Positions 1,437 to 30,491 of a DNA stretch of 64,000 nucleotides are shown piece by piece. Within the stretch, counting starts at the first letter, position 1; each line of letters opens with the position of its first letter. The stretch covers positions 216,876,001-216,940,000 of the forward strand of contig OZ024740.1 of NCBI GenBank assembly GCA_964016885.1, read 5' to 3'. The notes beneath the pieces are model-generated. The model searched no databases. It was not told the DNA's origin and saw only the letters and a list, made by a program, of their open reading frames with translations. The translations under genes and the position numbers were made by a program. The DNA is from Eledone cirrhosa (lineage: Eukaryota).

Positions 1437-2269
1437 TAGTTAACTGATTTTGTTAAGTGTTAACTGTAATGGCTCTCAAAGGATTTGTTCATAGTTTATA
1501 ATGAAAGGAGTGATAAAAAGGCTAATTGTTAATGTACTAACCTATCCCTGTGTCAATTGTTGTTTCTATGTGTGTTTTGTGTTGCTGTCAAATTGATGTA
1601 TGAAGCATCCATCAAAGAAGCATCTGTACAGGATTTTGTTGTTTTATGTATGGAGACTTAGTAATAGAGACAATATGCAAAGTTATCAAAATGCATGATT
1701 TTCTTGGCATAGAATACATATTTCTATTATAACTTCTAAATTCATTATTGTAGGCTGCAGCATAGAGGATACATTATATGTTAACAAAGCACATGTGAAA
1801 TTGTTAATGAAATACTATAATTTGGTGTTAATTCATATGAATCAACTGAAGGTATAGAATGAGATCAGTTGGTCTGGCAGATGTAAATGTTTTATTAATG
1901 AAAGACTTAAACTTTACTATTTGTAATGGTTAAATCATTTATAGACTTAATATTTCACTTGGTAAAACAAGGGTTTGGTTGGTTGGGGGTGGGAGTTCTG
2001 AATTACCACAATAAGGGAGTTTACCATCTTCCATTGTTACTTCAACTCAACAAAATTGACAAGTACAGACTAGATGAATTTAAAAAAAAAAGATAAAAGT
2101 GAAAACCTAAACATATAATGATCTCAACAAACATCATGTATAGAAAGCTGATCTCTCGGACTTTTACAAAGTGCTGAGGCAATAAAGTGGATATAAACAA
2201 TGTAGTGTTCCTCTGTGGAGATTCCATAAAATATCTTATAAAATAGGGTGAAGACTCTTAAAGGTTCTT

Positions 2270-2690
2270 AAAGCACCTCACAAAAGGTCGATGGAAGCCT
2301 TGGAGTGAGGAGACCCAAGAAAATTTGGGATGAGGTGATAAAAGCCGATCTTGCTCAATTGCACCTCTCAAAGGCGATGACACAGGACCGAGACCTCTGG
2401 CGCTTCCCATGGGTACAAGCCAAAGCTGAAGCATATAGACAGGATGCCCCCCATCCCCTCCCACTGTAAAATGGTCGTGTAGGTGTCACGACAAAAAGCA
2501 CCGAGTACGCACTGTAAATGAGGTTGGTGTTAGGAAGGGCACACAGCTGTAGAAATCAAGCTAAAATCAGTTCTATATGAGCAAGACATGGTCACCTGAC
2601 CTGGCATTGCCCAAAACAGGACAACTAGTTTAATCCATGCTAGCATGAAAAAATGATGTAAAATGGTAATGATGATGATGATGATGATAT
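2270..2690 (+). mobile_element. RTE LINE family A, 3' fragment
   Basis: ggagacccaagaaaatttgggat (RPRKxW), DRDLW-like segment, 3' UTR and (GAT)n tail. Confidence 0.7.
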
Positions 2691-3001
2691 GGTATTCGAT
2701 TCCTCATAGCTACCGATGGCAACTTATTTTTCCCTCTTTAAGGGTCTTCTCTCTATTTTATAAGCTATTCTATAGAATCTCGTCACATTAACACTCCACT
2801 CTTTATATATTGATCTGTTTTAAATCAGAGTTACAATTAATTCTATTGAGTAATATTGATATCAAAAGGAAAATTATAGTAAAATAAACAAAATAATATA
2901 AAGAAACAATGTCCAATGAAGTATTCAATACTTAGTAGAGAATAATAAAGACTGGTACACTTCTGTCATCATCATCGCCATCACTGCCACAACCACCATC
3001 G

Positions 3002-3030
<29 letters not shown>

Positions 3031-3032
<2 letters not shown>

Positions 3033-3205
3033 TGTTTCTACTTTTGGCACAATTATCCCAGTGCATTACTGGTACTTTATTTTTTTATCCCGTAAGGATG
3101 AAAGGCAAAGTTAACCTCGGTGGCATTTGAACTTTGACTGTAAAGGGCTGTAACTCTATGCTGCAAAGCATGGCGTCCGACCCTCTACCAATACTTCCAA
3201 TCCAC
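3031..3205 (-). mobile_element. tRNA-derived SINE family 1
   Basis: Reverse complement of the 61069-61250 copy; conserved core gaggttaactttgcctttcatcc...aaataaagtaccag. Confidence 0.85.
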
Positions 3206-4274
3206 AATCTCATCATCATAATAATGTGTGCATGTTATGTCTTCTTCTCTTCTTTGCCCACTAACTTCTGATAGGATTGTTGGGGCACACTCCTCAAACA
3301 CTCCCTCCACTGCCAGAAGCAACCGTCTCCAACTGATCTGGCTGGATCCCCAATTAAGACCAGCCAAGCTCATGGATGTTATCCAATCATCTTGCTATGG
3401 GTCTACCTCTGGGTCTCCTGCATGTTATGTTTTTATCAAAATACTTGGAATTTTGAGCTTAGCTCATGAACCTCCAGTATTGTTTTTGTATGCCACAATT
3501 TAAGAACCCCTTAGTTGTAGGCATGTTTTGAGTGGAAGAATTTAATGTGATACCCAGAGACTAAAATATCTCCAATGTTGAGTCATAGTCATGAATTATC
3601 TGCTGACATAAAGCTAAGCTGTTAAAATATTTCAAATTATCTATTAAAAGGGTTAATCACTAAGACCAGTCTTTATAGATTAACAAGTCTATAATAATAA
3701 TACATTGTAAGAAAGAAGTTTTATGATGTTCTATTAAATAGATAATCTCATTGGTGGGTGATCATAGAAAAATACGCTGTTGAATATCACTAGAGCACAC
3801 TACTAAAGACACAGAACTAATTATTAACATACAGGTCTGCTAATCTATCGAGACTGTTTATTACTATTGTAATATTACTTCTGGTTCAATGCCAACATAG
3901 TTTGTAAGTATCAAGCTTAACTGATCATAGCATGACATGTGAAGAAGGGAGATTCTCTTCTGATTAAATAACTGATTAGATATGAATGGAAAATAAGTGG
4001 AGGGCTAGAGTCACTTGCAGAAAAAAACACAATGACTTAGTGTCAGAGCAGAGAGTTAAAATTTTGATATTAACTGCTGAACAACAGGATAAAGTGTGAA
4101 GCATTGGTGGATAAAGAAGTTAGGATACTATTGTATCCAAATTCAGAGAATCCCTTGATCAATCTGAGGTTGTTGAAATGGAGGGTAGACTGTTTATAAA
4201 ACTGTAGATAATGCAGAAATAAGTCAAACTGCTAATATAACTGACACACACGCGCGCACACACACACAGGGTCT

Positions 4275-4542
4275 GTCCTGTAAGGTGTTCATGTTGGTGG
4301 CATGACAAAAAGCACCAAGTTCACCCTGTAATGTGGTCATTTCCATGCCACAATAAAAATCACCCAGTCCACACTGTAACAATGATTGACATTAGGAAGG
4401 ACATCCATCTGTAGAAAGCGAGCCAAAATATAGATCTGTATGAACATAACAAGGTCTCCTGTCTTGACTTGTCTCATAACATGACAGCCTGTCTAACCCA
4501 TGCAAGTGTGTAAAAATAGACATTAAAAATGATGTTGATGAT
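4275..4542 (+). mobile_element. RTE family A 3' UTR remnant
   Basis: ttaggaaggacatcc...gtctaacccatgcaag...gatgttgatg. Confidence 0.6.
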
Positions 4543-4555
4543 ATCTCTCTCTTCC

Positions 4556-4621
<66 letters not shown>

Positions 4622-4756
4622 CATACACATGTATATATATAAGTGTATGTATGAAACTGGTAGTGATCTTAGCCTTACCAAACATCATTTGTTGCTTGCT
4701 CTAGCAATGAATCATAGCATAAATCTTTTAATATATTCACCTTGCCAATGATGCAT

Positions 4757-4788
<32 letters not shown>

Positions 4789-5191
4789 TTATATAAACAC
4801 ACATGGAATAGTATACTAGATTTTCAGAATAATACTACCAACATTTACTAGTAAATAATATTAACAAGCTGCTTTAAAGAAGAAACATTTTTACCTAACG
4901 TGTATATTTTCTAATAAATCAATTATTGACAATAACACCAATTCCACACTGTTTTCTGGACTTCTTAGCATATTGAACATCTTAACTGAGTTTTTCATTT
5001 TGAAAAGAGTCTTTAAATATAAAATATTCAATTATTGATGCAGGTGGCTTGAAGACATATTTCACACATCTTATACTCATGTTGTTCTACACACATGGAA
5101 TGTATAAGTTTGATTAGGTGTAGGAGTGTTATATATATATATATACATATATTTGCATGTGTGTGTGTATGTATCTATCTATATATGTGTG

Positions 5192-5235
<44 letters not shown>

Positions 5236-5516
5236 CTCAGCACACACTGTACAGTGGTTGTTCTGGTACCATGATAAAACACACCTTGTACATGTCATGA
5301 AGTGGTTGGCATTAGGAAAGATATTCAACTCTAAAAACCCTGCCACAATGAAATGTCTGGCCTCAGATGTATGTGACAACCCATCTCACCTTTACAAGTT
5401 TGGAAAATAAATATAAAACATACCTGATGATGATGATAATCATCATCATCACTTTTTATCATTGCACCAACACTAGTGAGGTTGTTTTTGATCTTTCAAG
5501 ACTAAAGACTATCTAC

Positions 5517-5693
5517 TATTGCACCTCTCAACAGCGATGACACAGGACCGTGACCTCTGGTGTCACGGAGTAATACAGAAGACTCGACTTCCCACGAGAG
5601 CAAGCCGAAGCTGAAGCATATAGATAATATGTTTCCATCCCCTCCCACTGCAAAGTCGTCATGGAGGTGTCACGACAAAAATGCACCCAGCCC
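5517..5693 (+). mobile_element. RTE family A fragment
   Basis: Near-identical reverse complement of 7107-7279. Confidence 0.7.
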
Positions 5694-6065
5694 AAAGACT
5701 ATCTACTATTGTCTCCATTCAAGAGAAATTATCCATGAGGATGAATACAAGATAGAGCAATGACAGTAAGAAGAATCAGGGTTGGGGGAGGCGTGAAGTG
5801 AGCAATTGTATGAATGAGATAGAATGTTTGGTGGTGGTGGTTGGGGTGAGAGGAGTAATAGGAGTGAGTCAGTATGATAATGGATGAAGAGAATAAGAGT
5901 ATGATGGGAGAAATAAAGTTTAGGGGGAGTAATGGAAAAGATATAATGTTGGGGGGAGTAATAGATGCAACACTAAGTGTAACTACAGTATCTTACAGTA
6001 TCTAGACAGTAGCAGATAGTATCTTAGACACAAATTGGGCTTGACCCCAGATATAGATATACATT

Positions 6066-6660
6066 GTCTCTCCAAGACAATGTCACTGGACCGAGATCTT
6101 TGGCGCTACACAGTTATACAGAAGACCCGCCTTGCCTAAATACAAAGCGAAACCTACAGTCTGTAGGCACCTCTAACATAATACACCCCTGTCCCACTAC
6201 CCCCCACTCCATCCACACCACCCCCTTAAATGTGAAGTTATGTTGGTACCACAACATCCAGTCCGAAACAAATGAGGTCGTGTAGGTGTCACGACAAAAA
6301 AACACAGTCCACGCTGTAATGTGGCCGTGTAGGCAACATGGTAAAAACCTCCCAGTCCACACTGTAAACGTGGTTGGTGTTGGGAAGGGCACCCAGCCGT
6401 AGAAAACCCGCCAGACGTGTAGGTGTCACGACAAAAAAACACACAGTCCACGCTGTAATGTGGCCGTGTAGGTAACACGGTAAAAACAACCCAGTCCACA
6501 CTGTAAACGTGGTTGGTGTTAGGAAGGGCATCCAGCCATAGAAAACCCGCCAGACAGTCCTATACGAGCAGGACAACCAATCTTGCCTCAAGTGGGAAAA
6601 CTCCCGTCCAAACCCATGCAAGCGTGGAAGATGGATATTAAACGATGATGATGATGATGA
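6066..6660 (+). mobile_element. RTE family A 3' end
   Basis: [14 protein letters not shown]-coding segment, 3' UTR with an internal duplication, (GAT)n tail. Confidence 0.85.
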
Positions 6661-6694
6661 TATATGTATCTATTACTACCACCATTTTAACATT

Positions 6695-6880
6695 TACTCT
6701 ATATACTCAAATATAAGCCAATGAATGTGGGACCAAAGAATTGATGGTAGAATGGGAGTTTCACTTATATACCCCATCTAAACAATGTGTTGATTAGCTG
6801 CCTTGGTTTATATACAGGGTTTGGATTTTTTACCATTTCTCAGACATAAAATGGGATTGAGGGCTGCTTATATTCGAGTC
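6695..6880. mobile_element. Tc2/pogo-like MITE remnant
   Basis: TIR-like tatatactcaaatataagcc / gcttatattcgagt; homologue at 60239. Confidence 0.55.
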
Positions 6881-6884
6881 ACCT

Positions 6885-7595
6885 TCATCATCATCATCGT
6901 TTTACGTCCATTCTTCCATACTTGCATGGGTTAGACGGGTTGTCCTGTTGTGGGTGATGTTAGGTTGGGTGACCTTGTCTTGCTCATACGGGAACTGAAT
7001 TTGGCTTGATTTCTACAGCGGGATGCCCTTCCTAACACCAACCTCATTTATAGTGAGTGCTGGGGGCTTTTCTTTCGTGGCACCTACACGACCAATTTAC
7101 AGTGTGGGCTGGGTGCATTTTTGTCGTGACACCTCCACGATGACTTTGCAGTGGGAGGGGATGGAAACATATCTATATGCTTCAGCTTCAGCTTGCTCCC
7201 GTGGGAAATTGGGTCTTCTGTATTATCCGTGACACCAGAGGTCACGGTCCTGTGTCATCGCCGTTGAGAGGTGCAATTGGGCAAGGCTCGCTTTTATCAC
7301 CTCATCCCAGGTCTTCTTGGGTCCCCCCACTCCGTGGCTTCCATCAACTTTTAGTGCTCTGCACCTTTTTATGCAGCTGTCATCCTTCATACGCATTAGA
7401 TGTGCATATCAACACATCCTCCTCTCCTGCACACAGCATTTGATTCCTCTTATACTCAGTCCCTCTCTCAGCTTATTTATGCTTTGCCATTCGCGTATAT
7501 TACTATTACACATCCATTGGAGCATGCAGGCTTCATTTCTTTCTAATCTACGCAAGTCTTCTACACACAGCACCCAGGCCTCACTACCATGTAAC
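6885..7595 (-). mobile_element. RTE family A, 5'-truncated
   Basis: Encodes [28 protein letters not shown]...; 3' UTR; (GAT)n tail at 6885-6899. Confidence 0.85.
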
Positions 7596-8309
7596 TTTGA
7601 TGTTCGTATGCACATACGATATTTCACTATATGCTTGGACAGATCTTCTCAAACTCACAGAGTGAAAGGGAGAGGGGCGGGGTGTATACATATAAGAAGC
7701 AGATGGCGGAGAAAAACATCTGTGATCAGGTTGTAATGCAAAGACATATCATACTTGTACACAATTTATTGTAAAAAAAGATTAAAAAAAAGTTGTATTA
7801 CATTTCTGTTTGAAATATTTTAAATTACTTTAATATAAGACAGTAGTGTATATATAGATTATAAACTCATCCCTGAAATATTTATATACCCACACCTTTG
7901 ATGTGTGTGAGTGTATATAAGAATGATGGGGTAGAAAGATTAGCATGTTTAGACAAATACATTGTCTCACTTATTTTTCTATTCTCTTTTTCTTTGTCAG
8001 ATAAATTGAAAAACTTTTTAGTTTATTAAATTTTTTTCTTGCTATTAAACTTTAAAATATATTTAGATTCCTATCTTGAAATTAGAAACTATCTTTCTTT
8101 TTTTTTTTAATGTTGCTGTAGTTTTGCTAACTATAATTAGTTTTATGTTTAAATTTCTTTGAAATAACAGAAAGTTGTTAAATTTAGTTTTAATTTTATT
8201 TTGCATAAATTTACACATAAAATTTCACTGTTCATCAGAATGTTCTATTTCTAAACATATTTATTTGAAACAGTAATACACAATGCCATGACTATTAATC
8301 CCATCTTTG

Positions 8310-8851
8310 GTATAAGTGTGTCCAGAAGCTCATCAAACTGGAGCTTATCCCAGATTCATTGTCATCACAGGGATAATTACAAACTCCAGTAGACTGGAGC
8401 AATACAAAATGGAACCAGCAGGCCTTGACTGTGGAGTTGGCAAGTGTCCCAACAGAATTACCCTCTTTCCATTTGAAGGAGATAAATCCCTCATTTGGGA
8501 TGAGAGATGCTGTGACATGTTCTCTGCCTCCAACTTAGTTGCTTCAGCCACAAACCCTGGTATCACGGCCTGCAATCCAGAGGAGTGGAAGACAACCAAA
8601 TATCAAAGCTGTCTAGTTGCTTCCTCTTTGCATCCCTTGCAATCGAGACCTCAGGCATCCCTGGCCCCCATACAGCTGACTTCCTCTGTAGATTTGGAAT
8701 GACATTTTATTTCATGCTGCTCTTTCTGACAGAAGTTGTGACTGGTATCAACAATGGAAAGACCAGTGGAAACATTGCTTCCTTGTCCAATTTGATGAGT
8801 TCCAATCAGAATGAGGTTTGGGATCTTGTCAATCGATTCAAACAATTATGA
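8310..8851 (+). pseudogene. Degenerate C-terminal restriction-like endonuclease region of a CRE-type non-LTR retrotransposon
   Basis: GKCPNRITLFPFEGDKSLIWD...EEWKTTKY, then after a frameshift FLFASLAIETSGIPGPHTADFL...GNIASL; fits the recalled GKRPDGxTLxPW...LxWD...KxxKY...FxPxAxETxGxxG...RGNA pattern. Confidence 0.65.
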
Positions 8852-12456: not shown

Positions 12457-12496
12457 ACACAAACACAGATATATATATAGGCATAATCAGGAATCA

Positions 12497-13134
12497 GGAA
12501 TCAGATGTTGTTTACTCGAGAGAAGACTACGTTGGTATGGTCACGTGATGCGCATGAAAGACGACAGCTGTATAAAAAAGTGTAGGGCAATAAAAATAGA
12601 TGGTAGCCACGGAGTAGGCAGACCCAGAAAAACCTGGGACGACTTGATAAATTCTGACCTCACACACTTACACCTCTCCAAGACAATGTCACTGGACCGA
12701 GATCTTTGGCGCTACACAGTAATACAGAAGACCCACCTTACCTAAGTACAAAGCAAAACCTACAGTCAGTAGGCACCTCTAACAAAATACACCCCCATCC
12801 CACTACCCCCACCCCATCCACACCACCCCTTTCAATGTAAAGTTATGTTGGTACCACAACATCCAGCCCGAAACAAATGAGGTCGTGTAGGTGTCACAAC
12901 AAAAAAAAAACACACAGTCCACGCTGTAATGTGGCTGTGTAGGTAACACGGTAAAAACCTCCCAGTCCACACTGTAAACGTGGTTGGTGTTAGGAAGGGC
13001 ATCCAGCCATAGAAAACCCGCCAGACAGTCCTATACGAGCAAGACAACCACTCTTGCCTCAAGTGGGAAAACTCCCGTCCAAACCCATGCAAGCGTGGAA
13101 CACGGACGTTAAACGATGATGATGATGATGATGA
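12497..13134 (+). mobile_element. RTE family A 3' end
   Basis: [20 protein letters not shown]...GRPRKTW...DRDLWR, 3' UTR, (GAT)n tail. Confidence 0.9.
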
Positions 13135-13193
<59 letters not shown>

Positions 13194-19971: not shown

Positions 19972-20319
19972 ATCATCATCATCATTTTATCATCATCATT
20001 TTATGTCCGCTTTTCCCTGCTTGCAAGGGTGAGACGGGAACTGATTCTGGCTTGATTTCTACAGCTGGATGCCCTTCCTAACACCAACCTCATTTACAGT
20101 GAGTGCTGGGTGCTTTTTTGCTGTGGCACCTCCATGACCACTTTCCAGTGGAATGATATGGACCCCTGTCCCTATCATCTCATTTCTACAGCTGAGTAAA
20201 CTGGAGCAATGTGAAATAAAGTGCCTTGCTCAAGGAAACAACACATCACCTGGTCTGAGAATTGAACTCACAACCTTTCGATTGCAAGGCCAATGCTCTA
20301 ACCACTAAGCCATATGCCT

Positions 20320-23281: not shown

Positions 23282-23460
23282 AACCAAATAAATATATATA
23301 TTTTTAAAAAAATAAGACTTCAGTTGCATTTTCGATTTCATCCCTTTTTCTTTATATATATATATATATATATATATGAATGTACATATGTATATATCTG
23401 TATATATATATATATATATATGAATTTGCATATATATGTATATATATATATATATATATA

Positions 23461-24200
23461 TCATCATCATCATCATCATCATCAACGTTTAACGTCCGTG
23501 TTCCACGCTTGCATGGGTTTGGACGGGGGTAGTCCCACTTGAGGCAAGAGTGATTGTCTTGCTCGCATAGGACTGTCTGGCAGGTTTTCTACAGCTGGAT
23601 GCCCTTCCTAACACCAACCACATTTACAGTGTGGGTCTGGGAGGTTTTTACCGTGTTGCCTACACGACCACATTACAGCGTGGACTGTGTGTTTTTTTGT
23701 CGTGACACCTACACGATCTCATTTGTTTCGGCCTGGATGGCGTGGCACCGACATAACTTTACATAGAAGGGGTGGGGGGGGGTGTATTTTGTTAGAGATG
23801 CCTACTGGCTGTAGTAGGTTTTACTATGTATTTAGGTAAGGCGGGTCTTCTCTGTTACTGAGTACCGCCAAAGGTCTCGGTCCAGTGACATTGTCTTGGA
23901 GAGGTGTAAGTGTGTGAGGTCGGAGTTTATCAGCTCGTCCCAGGTTTTTCTAGGTCTGCCTATTCCGTGGCTACCGTCTATCATTATTGCCCTGCACTTT
24001 GTTATACAGCTATCGACTTTCATGCGCATCACGTGTCCATACCAACGTAGCCTTCTCTCGAGTAAACAACATCTGATCCCTCTTATCTCTAATTTTTTCC
24101 TTAGTTCGTTTATGCTTTGCCGTTCACGTATATTACTGTTACACATCCAGCGGAGCATGCAAGCTTCGTTCCTCTCTAGTCTGCGTATATCCTCTGCACA

Positions 24201-25476: not shown

Positions 25477-25746
25477 ATATTTTTATGTATATATATGTAT
25501 ATACATATGTATATATGTATATATATGTATATATGTATATATATATGTATATATATGTATATATATGTATATATATATGTATATATATGTATATATATGT
25601 ATATATATGTATATATATGTATATATATGTATATATATATGTATGTATATATTATATGTATATATATATTATATATATATATGTCTATATATATTATATA
25701 TATGTTATATATATATTATATATATATGTATGTATATATATATGTA

Positions 25747-26436
25747 TACGTGAACGGCAAAGCATAAACGAACTAAGGAAAAAATTAGAAATAAGAGGGA
25801 TCAGATGTTGTTTACTCGAGAGAAGGCTACGTTGGTATGGACACGTGATGCGCATGAAAGTCGATAGCTGTATAACAAAGTGCAGGGCTATAAAGATAGA
25901 CGGTAGCCACGGAATAGGCAGACCTAGAAAAACCTGGGACGAGCTGATAAACTCCGACCTCACACACTTACACCTCTCCAAGACAATGTCACTGGACCGA
26001 GACCTTTGGCGGTACTCAGTAACAGAGAAGACCCGCCTTACCTAAATACATAGTAAAACCTACTACAGCCAGTAGGCATCTCTAATAAAATACACCCCGT
26101 CCCACCACCACCACCTCCACCCTATCGACACCACCCGGTTCTATGTAAAGTTATGTTGGTGCCGCGCCATCCAGGCCGAAACAAATGAGATCGTGTAGGT
26201 GTCACGACAAAAAAACACACAGTCCACGCTGTAATGTGGCCGTGTAGGCAACACGGTAAAAACCTCCCAGACCCACACTGTAAATGTGGTTGGTGTTAGG
26301 AAGGGCATCCAACTGTAGAAAACCTGCCAGACAGTCCTATGCGAGCAAGACAATCACTCTTGCCTCAAGTGGGACTACCCCCGTCCAAACCCATGCAAGC
26401 GTGGAACACGGACGTTAAACGTTGATGATGATGATG
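25747..26436 (+). mobile_element. RTE family A 3' end, near-identical inverted partner of 23461-24202
   Basis: [17 protein letters not shown]...[10 protein letters not shown]...; shares diagnostic bases with its partner. Confidence 0.9.
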
Positions 26437-26646: not shown

Positions 26647-27158
26647 GATATAGATATATATATATAATTCTTTCTACTATTAGCACAAGGGAATTATAAA
26701 TAGAAGCCAGGACTATCCATCATCAGTGGTCTACTAGCAATCATAGGTATTTCTTCGCATTACAGACCGTATACCTCCGGCTAGCGCGATACAATAACTA
26801 AATTAAGTTATTGGGATAAAAAGAGTTGGGTGGAGAAAGAGAGACAGGTAAACAAACACGAATGGTGAGGCAACGTAAAGAGAGGAAAAAATGAGAAAAT
26901 CAAGTCAATAATTTATTTTGAACATAAGAACTTGCGAATATTGACGAGAAGGCAAAGACACATCTTGGCTGTGCGACTGTGAGCGAGGAAAGAATCTTGT
27001 ACGGTGTGGGACGATGGTGGGAGAGAGGGTGAGTGGCAAAGAGTGAGTGAGTGAAAGTGTGAGGAAGAGGCTAGCCGAGAGAGGGTGACTAGCAGAGGGG
27101 GTCAGTGAAAGTAAGAGGGAGGAGTGTGAAAGAGGATAGCAGTATGGGAAGAGAAACA

Positions 27159-27189
<31 letters not shown>

Positions 27190-27228
27190 ATATATGTATG
27201 TATATATATATATGTATATGTATGTATG

Positions 27229-27265
<37 letters not shown>

Positions 27266-27268
<3 letters not shown>

Positions 27269-27467
27269 GGAACGAGTAGGACCCTGACGGCTGAGCTCAA
27301 GCCGTTTCGACAGCTAATTCTGGACTAAATGTCCAGAATTAGCCATTGAAACGGCTTGAGCTCAGCCGTCGGGGTCCTACTCGTTCCTATTACCCACTCT
27401 ACTACCCTAAGTATTGAGTACTTTGGTGCGTTATGGTCCACCTGGTTCCCTACCACATTTCCTCCGT

Positions 27468-27470
<3 letters not shown>
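27266..27470. mobile_element. Palindromic element with HHR 3' halves (arms 27266-27325 / 27331-27390) and a tail
   Basis: GAAA CGGC uUGAGCUCA GCCG UC GGGG; no CUGA core seen; relatives at 19240, 37845, 45590 and 58800. Confidence 0.65.
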
Positions 27471-27565
<95 letters not shown>

Positions 27566-27613
27566 AGTAAAAACAATGAAATAAAAAATCAAGTCATTAG
27601 AGATATACTTCAC

Positions 27614-27749
27614 TGCTTTACGATCGTTTCTAGATGATGATAATACATTGTAGCTATACTCAGTTATTGATCTATGTAAGGTTAGTTACAAACTATCAAA
27701 TAAAGAGAATATTTACTTACATGCATATCACCAGCTGTTTTCAAAAGCA
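27614..27749 (-). ncRNA. Hammerhead ribozyme (U3-A8 variant, extended helix II)
   Basis: UGCUU UUGAAAA CAGCUGGUGAUA...UAUCAUCAUCUA GAAA CGAUCG UA AAGCA. Confidence 0.65.
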
Positions 27750-28480
27750 ATAATAATTTTATTCAATAATAATTTTATTCAGAATAATTTTATTCAATAA
27801 TAATTTTATTAAGAATTGTTTTTTTCATATGGTGTTAATACACTTTAGTTGAGGTCATGACCCTTTGAAAGGAATGGTTGAAGGGTGTTAATAGTAGAAT
27901 TGGCATAAAAATCTATTAGGAGGAAAGGGATTGTCAAACTGATAGTTGAATGTATCTGGTATAGTGAAGTTAAAAGGAATGTCAAAATAAATGGTGATTA
28001 GTGTTGTATTGAGTTTTAAGGTGAATATAAATTAAGGTTATGGCTAGGAAAGATAGTATATTAAAAGATGAAAATTATAATAAGATAATGAAATACAGTA
28101 ATGCGATAATATACAACTTAACCAACACAATATAGTATGGTGTAGTAAATTGCACTTAGTATAATATAGCATATGATACGCTCTAAAATACTATCAAGTA
28201 TGTTTATGCATAAATAATCAAACTCAGATAAATACTTGTTGGCATAGTTAAAACACATAAATTTCATAGATTACAAAGTACATATATCCACACTACATAT
28301 AGAGAGAGGTGCAGTTATATTGATAAACCTAAATACACATTTACACGTATGCATATAATCATATACATACATATCCATACATATCTATATCCACACATAG
28401 ACATCTATACCCACATATATACACATATATATATATAGACACACACACACTCATACATACATATATATATACACATACAT

Positions 28481-28521
<41 letters not shown>

Positions 28522-28913
28522 TACACATATATACATGTGTGAGTATATGTACACTCCTCATACATGTTCACATACTCATATATAAACACTCATACACCTA
28601 TACTCACATATACACACACACAAACACACATATATATATACACACATAAGTATATATACATACACACATACATATATACATATATATATATAAACACACA
28701 CATAAATATATTTCCATATCATACATAGATATATATTTACTCATACAATTACGGGTGGTTGTGTATCATGTTGCCTTTAGTCATTAACGCATAAATCTAA
28801 GGAAGCTAAAACATTAAAAGGCAAAAATAAGCATGAATGCATATAATTAAGGGAAAGGGGTACTAATAAATGTTACTCTATATGGAATTATAGTGAGTTG
28901 CTATTTAGAATAT

Positions 28914-29284
28914 TCAATGAGGTTTATAGTATTTAAATGTTCTTTGTATAAGGTGATTACAAACTATGATCAGTTCCTGTCTTTTATTTAATAAATCGTC
29001 CTTACATTTAGTAATTTCCAAGATCTCCCCTGAACATAATCTGCATTCCCTCCTGTTCCCAAGATATGGAGTTCTTTGTAGAATGGTGTTCCACGATAAC
29101 TTGAAATTTATTTTTTTATTTTTATAATTATTTACCGCTTCAGTTAAAGATGTGGTGTTAGCTAGTTTAGTATTGTTGAAACTACTAGAGTATGCATAAA
29201 ATCTTTTCTTTAATGTGTTTGATGTAGATCCTATATACGTTTTGTTGGAGTCTGTAGTAGATACAGTGCATTTATATATTACTA

Positions 29285-29285
<1 letters not shown>
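28914..29285 (-). CDS. GIY-YIG endonuclease domain of a Penelope-like element (5'-truncated, no ATG, 123 aa open)
   Basis: Manual translation: [123 protein letters not shown]; has VIY/YIG, R, E, LN, CxxC and CxH. Confidence 0.85.
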
Positions 29286-29330
<45 letters not shown>

Positions 29331-29343
29331 GTATATGTATATG

Positions 29344-29390
<47 letters not shown>

Positions 29391-29639
29391 GTATATATAT
29401 ATATGTATATATATATGTATATATATATATGTATATATATATGTATATATATATATGTATATATATATGTATATATATATGTATATGTATATATATATGT
29501 ATATATATATGTATATATATATGTATATATATATATGTATATATATATATATGTATATATATATATGTATATATATATATGTATATATATATATGTATAT
29601 ATATATATATGTATATATATATATGTATATATATATATG

Positions 29640-29670
<31 letters not shown>

Positions 29671-29685
29671 GTATATATGTATATG

Positions 29686-29716
<31 letters not shown>

Positions 29717-30101
29717 GTATATATGTATATATATATGTATATGTATATATGTATATATGTATATATATATATATGTATATGTATATATGTATATATGTAT
29801 ATATATATATGTATATATATATATGTATATATGTATATGTATATATATATGTAGATATATATGTAGATATATATGTAGATGTATATATATATATCTATGT
29901 ATATATATATGTATATATATATGTATATATATGTATATGTATATATATATATATGGATATATATATTTGTATATATATATATATATGTATATATATATGT
30001 ATATATATGTGTATATGTATATATATATGTATATGTATATATATATATGTATATGTATATATATATGTATATATATATGTATGTATATGTATATATATAT
30101 G

Positions 30102-30150
<49 letters not shown>

Positions 30151-30491
30151 GTATATGTATATATATATGTATATGTATATATATATGTATATGTATATGT
30201 ATATATGTATATGTATACATATAAGTATGTATATATGTATATGTATACATATAAGTATGTATATATGTATATGTATACATATAAGTATATATATATGTAT
30301 ATGTATATATATATGTATACATATATATATATATATACATATATATATATGTATACATATATATATATATGTATACATATATATATATATATATGTATAC
30401 ATATATATATATATATGTATACATATATATATATATATGTATACATATATATATATATGTATACATATATATATATATGTATATATATATA
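29286..30491. repeat. (TA)n/(TATG)n tract, representative of many (e.g. 24203-25746, 33765-34610, 43395-44570)
   Basis: Direct observation. Confidence 0.98.

Follow-up and report, generated by a model that had tools for sequence, protein, structure and literature searches.

We analyzed a 64,000-nucleotide stretch of the Eledone cirrhosa genome (hereafter "the window"; contig OZ024740.1, positions 216,876,001 to 216,940,000), in which an earlier note, made from the letters alone, had pointed to an intact GIY-YIG endonuclease frame at 28914-29285 that was missing from the open reading frame (ORF) track. The segment that contains this frame, i.e., 27567-29282 on the minus strand, is very probably a 5'-truncated copy of a Penelope-like element (PLE) of the Hydra clade that was inserted into a (TA)n tract, likely by target-primed reverse transcription (TPRT), and that retains the GIY-YIG endonuclease (EN) domain as its sole coding remnant. 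Read in the sense of the element, the truncated 5' end adjoins a (TA)n/(TATG)n microsatellite, the target tract, at 29285-30490 (TRF rows 29273/29285-30490; junction tatatatTAGTAATATATAAATGC). The EN domain remnant, with 122 codons plus TGA (28914-29282, minus strand; delimited by translation, genome matches, alignment and model), is followed right after the stop codon by a unique part of the 3' untranslated region (3'UTR; 28737-28913, minus strand), which is kept in 19/19 other copies, and then by a TG/TA-rich microsatellite-like tract inside the 3'UTR (28363-28736, minus strand; detected by TRF), which lies within the alignment to copy L040 described below; a TG/TA tract is present in 19/19 other copies. 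The element ends with a 3' terminal region of approx. 800 bp (27567-28362, minus strand; delimited by alignments to other copies), the last bases of which read ...CATTGTTTTTAC. Close to the 3' end, this region contains a conserved 26-mer, CTAGAAACGATCGTAAAGCAGTGAAG (27608-27633, minus strand; supported by genome count and alignment), which includes a hammerhead-like GAAAC-GAUC-GUA half. A (TA)49 target tract (27468-27565; TRF and sequence) adjoins the complete 3' end, downstream in the sense of the element.

A single alignment of 1824 bp with 88.8% identity joined the copy at locus L040 (5479-7281) to the window (29282-27504), spanning, in this order, the EN domain, the unique 3'UTR part, the TG/TA tract and the terminal region of approx. 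800 bp. The window copy breaks off 5' where the GIY motif begins, at its first codon, and borders there on the 1.2-kb (TA/TG)n tract. As conserved sequence was found upstream of the VIY codon in 19/19 other copies sampled, the window copy has lost its 5' part, with the cut precisely where the EN core begins. Alignment to other copies and protein comparison revealed no other parts of the element elsewhere in the window. Across the EN and the unique 3'UTR part (542 nt), identity to 32 sampled copies ranged from 84.9 to 95.0% (median 92.3%), in a sample that is biased towards the closest relatives of the window copy. We also considered a partner copy in inverted orientation on the far side of the 5' TA tract, which was rejected as element similarity was absent from 30500 onward, and a defined 1.9-kb short form (suggested by a 5' boundary shared between L022 and L023), which was rejected as longer copies read through that point.

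The minus-strand frame at 28917-29282 represents 122 sense codons, with a TGA stop at 28914-28916, and encodes a peptide that runs from VIYKCTV... to ...KYYKPH. From stop to stop, this frame comprises 326 codons (28914-29894), with I-Y-I-Y repeats upstream that derive from the (TA/CA)n tract; protein similarity begins at the V of VIY, and nearly all genome matches start at query residue 4. No in-frame ATG was found across the 326-codon frame (i.e., there is no M in the translation), which explains why a start-codon-based ORF track missed it. Every motif that the note listed was recovered from the translation, i.e., VIY-x12-YIG, the Arg (in KKRF), SW, CRLC-x2-E (as CRLCSGE), LLNKR and CNH. Its count of 123 uninterrupted codons at the edge of a TA tract described a real open EN frame, although this frame consists of 122 sense codons plus TGA and the open frame itself of 326 codons; similarly, "intact" is true of the EN core and overstated for the copy, which has no linker, reverse transcriptase (RT) or start codon.

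A first-look search of the 3.0-Gb E. cirrhosa genome with the EN peptide yielded 56,924 candidates. All of the 150 matches that were scored (150/150) showed E-values between 2.9e-78 and 3.3e-60 and identities of 82-92%, and the match was stop-free in 99 of these 150 best EN copies (manual count). Among 118 database proteins compared, 87 matched exactly the 28917-29282 stretch, using only their C-terminal approx. 110-125 residues. To judge from these sequence comparisons, the similarity of the window frame to repeats and proteins far exceeds chance.

In an alignment of 30 sequences, the residues Y6, Y19, G21, K28, R30, T47, L49, W67, C83, C86, E89, N102, C111 and H113 were invariant. The AlphaFold2 model of the EN that was built from this alignment had a mean pLDDT of 88.6 and showed a beta-beta-alpha-alpha-beta-alpha-alpha order of secondary structure elements. 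Exhaustive structural alignment (VIA-align) of the model ranked I-TevI first (Z 9.8; root-mean-square deviation 2.5 A over 89/92 residues), followed by T4 EndoII (Z 7.3), the PD-T4-3 restriction enzyme (Z 6.1) and the UvrC GIY-YIG domain (Z 5.4); these top four are all GIY-YIG nucleases, and the fifth row falls to Z 3.8. The window EN has in common with I-TevI (1ln0), T4 EndoII (2wsh), PD-T4-3 (9u75) and the UvrC N-terminal domain (1ycz) a beta-beta-alpha-alpha-beta-alpha core and the catalytic Tyr, Tyr, Gly, Arg, Glu and Asn positions, at sequence identities of 12-21%. In contrast to the window EN and its relatives, these four nucleases are free-standing or joined to DNA-binding domains, not to an RT, and do not have the late CxxC/CxH pair. 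The invariant catalytic Y, Y, G, R, E and N, together with a modelled fold that best matches I-TevI, support the proposal of a GIY-YIG nuclease domain.

Longer copies of the family to which the window copy belongs were used to assess what precedes the EN. Directly upstream, these copies encode a linker (YGCNCRNRSICPLNGNC), a long stretch rich in N/T/H and a WYNAPFNLQ...KFSYS block; further upstream, they show FLDVTLDL, YHKPNQNLHYVHSRSNHP, GLYRDDCL, FDITMGSMDSAQ, FIQFDIDSYYSSIS, RLICPSKSDIG, HSDKTGN and MRWRAYHF. The order in the longer copies is an N-terminal RWR/DKT region, an RT core (with GLYRDDCL), an RT thumb, a CxCX5C linker and the EN. No complete RT-EN frame of this family was found among approx. 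21 listed rows or the long copies read. On the other hand, a sister family in the same genome is represented by many open frames of 830 codons (813 aa from MEKQYLG), which form a single ORF with RT motifs and a C-terminal EN; among the matches listed in the search for this family, at least 46 rows were stop-free and at least 24 had exactly 830 codons (manual count). The sister family is 66% identical to the window's family in the RT region and 57.9% identical in the EN, and the copies within it are 97-99% alike. Because the sister copies are this similar and have intact frames, a related autonomous element has likely been active recently or is still active. As for the suggestion in the earlier note that an autonomous partner may still exist in the genome, the sister family is the only one in which intact RT-EN frames were seen; none were seen in the window's own family.

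As the window copy itself has no RT, the RT was tested on the sister family and the longer copies. A total of 117 database relatives of the sister protein were mostly approx. 700 aa long and located on contigs of 2.3-2.8 kb. When the sister protein and five relatives were compared to Pfam, neither RVT_1 nor HTH_animal nor DUF8422 was detected at the thresholds applied; relatives do carry PF26215, PF28514, PF01541 and PF00078 according to precomputed tags and the ESM Atlas. Among the ESM Atlas neighbours, which we treat as a lead only, there are tags for HTH_animal, DUF8422, GIY-YIG and RVT_1, and the few neighbours with a taxon record come from Cnidaria, Ctenophora, Mollusca and Arthropoda. 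A 30-member profile compared to PDB sequences matched a retron RT (E 0.0023). The model of the full-length sister-family protein had a pLDDT of 82.9, with low confidence only at residues 478-576 and 653-669. In a Foldseek search with this model, the nine best matches were telomerase RTs (E 4.6e-9 to 1.4e-7), which ranked before DRT, retron, LINE-1 and group II intron RTs. Closeness to telomerase RTs is expected of PLE RTs. In addition, hhalign aligned the family profile from RT4 to the EN with another RT plus GIY-YIG element in the same genome (Prob 97.6, E 3.5e-12). These results support the earlier assignment to PLEs with an upstream RT, as full-length relatives carry an RT before the EN and its fold matches telomerase RTs first. 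Of the two outcomes that the earlier note had named as refuting its reading, i.e., no match to a GIY-YIG profile or full-length relatives without an upstream PLE RT, neither was observed.

The hhalign partner (L047, 6835-8001) is a 389-codon open frame with RYLDDCF, YYKPTD..SCHP, a CGIC linker, LIYVLTCSGCREQYIGQT and two Cys in the GIY core. A different PLE remnant at L037 (360-1302) shows RYVDDI, a YKK..S..P thumb and a GIY-YIG EN with CC...HH (VVYRLECDKCSNFYVGST...HIRIKEH); the genome therefore contains at least two further RT plus GIY-YIG lineages. At L049 (2398-8591), sister-family copies are arranged in tandem with a period of approx. 6.2 kb, and the 5' leader appears again at 8591; beyond both leader starts, the identity continues upstream for another 150 nt or more, and approx. 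2.5 kb of the unit are TA/TG-rich.

The 3' end of the element was assessed separately. The last approx. 150 nt, which include the 26-mer, were kept in 19 further aligned rows. The exact 26-mer was found 1,491 times in the genome, with the window site among these copies, as compared to 0 times for the reversed control. Twenty motif sites were sampled on contig 1 irrespective of the presence of an EN; 12 showed TA-type ends, 6 were tandem and 2 were of other types. At 11/20 sites, the copy reached ...GTTTTAAC and then adjoined a TA-type tract, while one more copy stopped earlier, directly in a TA run; at 6/20 sampled 3' ends, TTATAT was followed directly by the 5' start of another copy (CATGACTCTG...). 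The 5' extents differed among the sampled copies and the 3' end was fixed. The 3' end of the element is its true terminus. The possibility that the terminal region of approx. 800 bp is the 5' part of a neighbouring element was rejected, given the same end base beside TA repeats in 11/20 sites and the variable 5' truncation. A query of the genome with an RT piece yielded 19,649 candidates.

Fixed 3' ends combined with variable 5' truncation and partial tandems form the pattern that would be expected from TPRT and from PLEs. Overall, the PLE-type insertion features observed were 5' truncation of variable extent, a constant 3' end, and partial copies in tandem (pseudo-LTR) or inverted arrangement. 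On contig C1, exact 26-mer copies often occur as inverted pairs 100-450 bp apart (e.g., 60481389/60481512, 85207305/85207540 and 120467011/120467273), which suggests very short copies, truncated at the 5' end, that were inserted back to back. At L048 (G000:C4:290957800-290967700), two long sister-family copies are located head-to-head in a 9.7-kb palindrome with its centre near 5060; the two are 99.07% identical, and both have an intact 830-codon RT-EN frame (2188-4677 on the minus strand and 5441-7930 on the plus strand). The close inverted 26-mer pairs and the head-to-head pair fit the inverted insertions described for PLEs (PMC8557442).

Section 11 of PMC8557442 (Craig, Yushenova, Rodriguez and Arkhipova 2021) describes Hydra elements as having a C-terminal EN without the CCHH motif, a CxCX5C linker and CxxC/CxH around the E and N, as well as DKT rather than DKG, an RWK motif, a short length with a single ORF, (TA)n insertion and canonical hammerheads; according to the same section, the hammerheads are readily found in Hydra elements, and they are not singled out there as a distinguishing feature. 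Supplement File S1 of that paper gives (TA)n as the insertion preference of Hydra families. In the window copy, the GIY-YIG core has one Cys between GIY and YIG and no conserved Cys/Cys/His/His columns. The CxCX5C linker was found as GCNCRNRSICPLNGNC in at least 17/19 longer copies and as a CNC...C column block in relatives, and has been cut off from the window copy by the truncation. The late pair is present in the window peptide as CRLC-SG-E plus CxH, with C83, C86, C111 and H113 invariant. DKT was found as HSDKTGN in the local families (i.e., the window's family and its sister), and ADKT and RLRWK columns are present in relatives. With regard to (TA)n insertion, the window copy is located between (TA)49 and the 1.2-kb (TA/TG)n tract, and 12/20 sampled 3' ends are of the TA type, as given above.

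The motif set of the family also matches the printed rows of the published Hydra alignment (PMC8557442 supplement), with the same conserved blocks. Hydra-1_Obim, Hydra-1/2_Amil and Hydra-1/2_Ajap are, as presented in PMC8557442, like the local families in having a single ORF with an RT followed by a C-terminal GIY-YIG EN. The Hydra clade and the local families have in common the blocks LKDHK..RLINP, FDI..FYPSI, GLYRDDGL, FLDVT, SNHP and W(F/Y)NPPFS; both are without CCHH and have CxCX5C, CxxC/CxH, DKT, an RWK-type motif and (TA)n targets, and tandem and inverted partial copies occur in both. Conversely, the local families show no canonical hammerhead, only its GAAAC-GAUC-GUA half, and their units are longer than those of Hydra elements because of a low-complexity insert of approx. 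100 residues before the WYNAPF block and a long 3'UTR (at least 1.4 kb) with a TG/TA tract. The local copy number is on the order of 10^4, as compared to the small number of Hydra families outside Cnidaria that PMC8557442 includes. The match of EN, linker, DKT and RWK-type motifs and of (TA)n insertion to the published definition supports the Hydra call, which the earlier note had put forward subject to checking; the feature is, as far as motif comparison can place it, a copy of a new family within the known Hydra clade.

Several observations weigh against the interpretation of the window feature as a TPRT-derived, Hydra-clade PLE copy. The window peptide matched Pfam GIY-YIG (PF01541) with E 0.0019 and 18.9 bits, below the curated cut-off of 22.6 (one relative scored 16.3 bits), and a Foldseek search with the EN model gave no match at E<=0.001, with the I-TevI catalytic domain first at E 0.36. 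The GIY-YIG profile check that the note had proposed thus returned a sub-threshold match only, while the modelled fold matched GIY-YIG nucleases; CDD/HHpred matches to cd10443/cd10446 are reported for Hydra ENs (PMC8557442). A Pfam search with the full-length sister protein revealed neither RVT_1 nor any other significant domain. Both local families (the window's and the sister) show RWR, not RWK, and the units measure approx. 4.1 kb in the window's family and, to judge from the tandem period, 6.2 kb in the sister family, as compared to <3 kb for the clade, the elements of which PMC8557442 calls "generally short". Rfam hammerhead models found nothing in four copies (E<=1) or in window positions 26800-29400 (E<=10), and the core pattern of PMC8557442, CTGANGA-N7-17-GAAA, was absent from both strands of 7 element stretches. 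Among other truncated copies, the 5' junctions of L005, L007, L010, L018 and L019 do not adjoin TA repeats. Finally, the Hydra assignment was made by motif-by-motif comparison with the printed alignment rows, and TPRT, the nicking specificity and the microhomology pairing are steps that we infer.

As the earlier note had taken the open frame as a sign of a young insertion, we considered whether the window copy could be a very recent insertion from an active master of its own family. The 366 nt without indels or stops, the identity of up to 95.0% to other copies across 542 nt and the presence of intact RT-EN elements in the genome would all be consistent with this explanation. However, 12/366 coding sites (3.3%) are private to the window copy, i.e., it departs there from 80% or more of 19 other copies. 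The private substitutions are distributed 4:3:5 over the codon positions, with 9 being non-synonymous and 3 synonymous, occur without any indel, and show a neutral pattern. Since 6.3% of the possible single substitutions in the frame create a stop, the probability that the frame is still open after 12 hits is approx. 0.46; an open frame is therefore unremarkable and by itself no proof of youth. The nearest sampled copy is 95.0% identical and the sampled range is 84.9-95.0% (median 92.3%); the intact elements belong to the sister family, which is only 57.9% identical in the EN and the copies of which are 97-99% alike, and the approx. 21 rows and the long copies of the window's own family contained no complete RT-EN frame. 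Overall, we consider a very recent insertion unlikely, and the argument from the open frame to a young age does not hold up well against 12 neutral private substitutions.

A second alternative is that the window remnant is a PLE endonuclease of another clade (i.e., Nematis, Neptune, Penelope/Poseidon or Naiad). Penelope/Poseidon, Neptune and Nematis are like the local families in that they combine a telomerase-related RT with a C-terminal GIY-YIG EN and show 5'-truncated, tandem and inverted insertions and presumed TPRT. PMC8557442 also indicates that a GIY-YIG EN is common to all EN+ PLEs and that (TA)n insertion occurs in several clades, and both the missing hammerhead in the local elements and the placement by motifs would leave room for such an assignment. 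On the other hand, Penelope/Poseidon, Neptune and Nematis are described in PMC8557442 with a CX2-5CxxC linker or none and with DKG and GxKF/Y motifs, none of which the window EN has; instead, a single Cys lies between GIY and YIG, the CCHH columns are absent, the linker is CxCX5C and DKT is found in place of DKG. Moreover, the EN is C-terminal, as compared to N-terminal in Naiad and Chlamys, and BLASTP found no significant similarity between the window peptide and the CCHH-type PLE EN of the same genome (L037:673-1302; E 0.23), while the published Hydra alignment rows carry the same conserved blocks as the local family. Taken together, these data make a different clade very unlikely.

That the frame represents a domesticated or stand-alone GIY-YIG endonuclease gene held open by selection is barely credible, as its 122 open codons and fully kept catalytic and Cys/His positions stand against a 326-codon frame without an in-frame ATG that begins within a TA repeat, against its being one of at least 150 near-identical scored repeats, with the frame also open in 99 of these 150 best EN copies, and against private substitutions (9 non-synonymous to 3 synonymous) that are spread evenly across codon positions, with a probability of approx. 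0.46 that 12 random substitutions leave the frame open. The window fragment is a dead repeat copy that has decayed neutrally, without a function of its own, and is not a gene. For annotation, this means that the "hidden endonuclease" is a repeat fragment that should be masked rather than called as a gene.

For the origin of the truncated Hydra-clade copy, a sequence of events can be proposed from what is known of EN+ PLEs. An RT-EN protein from an autonomous copy may have nicked the TA tract through its GIY-YIG domain, and cDNA synthesis would have been primed at this nick on the element RNA, starting from its 3' end; the TTATAT that follows the element 3' end in copies may pair with the nicked TA repeat. 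Synthesis may then have stopped, or switched template, 1.7 kb into the element at an element-internal TA-rich stretch (GTAATATATAAA), which might pair with the opposite side of the TA tract. After insertion, the window fragment has decayed neutrally.

It is tempting to speculate, and we regard it as possible though somewhat doubtful, that this lineage carries its own landing pad, i.e., that the 3'UTR's several-hundred-bp TG/TA tract and the TTATAT end, which every copy brings along even when 5'-truncated like the window's, seed TA tracts that the same TA-targeting endonuclease can hit again, with the canonical hammerhead lost and the GAAAC-GAUC-GUA motif kept. If true, such a loop would explain the expansion to approx. 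10^4 copies and the dense clusters of TA-microsatellite insertions in this genome, and TA-seeking mini-elements nearby could hit element-seeded TA tracts too. More broadly, the analysis shows a lineage of the Hydra clade, which was known in 2021 from few families, that has grown in an animal genome of 3 Gb to a copy number on the order of 10^4, and the atypically long microsatellite-bearing 3'UTR without a canonical hammerhead provides data on how PLEs target, and perhaps generate, TA microsatellites.

The GAAAC-GATC-GTA half was further assessed for the remainder of a hammerhead. CTGANGA was found within 45 nt upstream of this half in 0/33 occurrences examined, and the box upstream of the conserved half reads AAC(T/G)GAGTA. 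Three hits to the hammerhead core that were obtained when the spacer was loosened to 50 nt were rejected, as none is conserved at the 3' end; two are located at the same place in the RT coding region and one, in L038, is without stems. The motif CTAGAAACGATCGT.AA..AGTGAA is common to the 3' end of the window's family (27608-27633) and to the leader of the sister family (L048, approx. 5117-5150), although the proteins of the two families are only approx. 58-66% identical. This motif may represent a conserved non-coding signal, with a relic of a hammerhead or a site recognized by the RT as possible identities.

The window is made largely of repeats. Beside the PLE 3' end, a 205-bp mini-element (27268-27472) is located between two (TA)n tracts (27158-27268 and 27468-27565); it consists of a unique part of approx. 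83 nt and a near-perfect palindrome of approx. 122 nt, with a predicted fold of -127 kcal/mol (z -16.7). A genome search with this mini-element yielded 3,455 first-look candidates, and 39 full-length copies that were scored showed 93-97% identity. Variants of its palindrome follow a TA tract in L059 (in opposite orientation) and perhaps in L060. Fragments of a non-PLE retroelement tail, 71-86% identical, are found in the window at 2279-2688, 6879-7613, 12496-13135, 23460-24187, 25745-26436 and other positions, and the same tail is also present in L038 (295-867) and L021 (4287-5009). In addition, a unit of approx. 117 bp is repeated in the window at 20034, 30539, 32093, 44737, 47344 and 49216.

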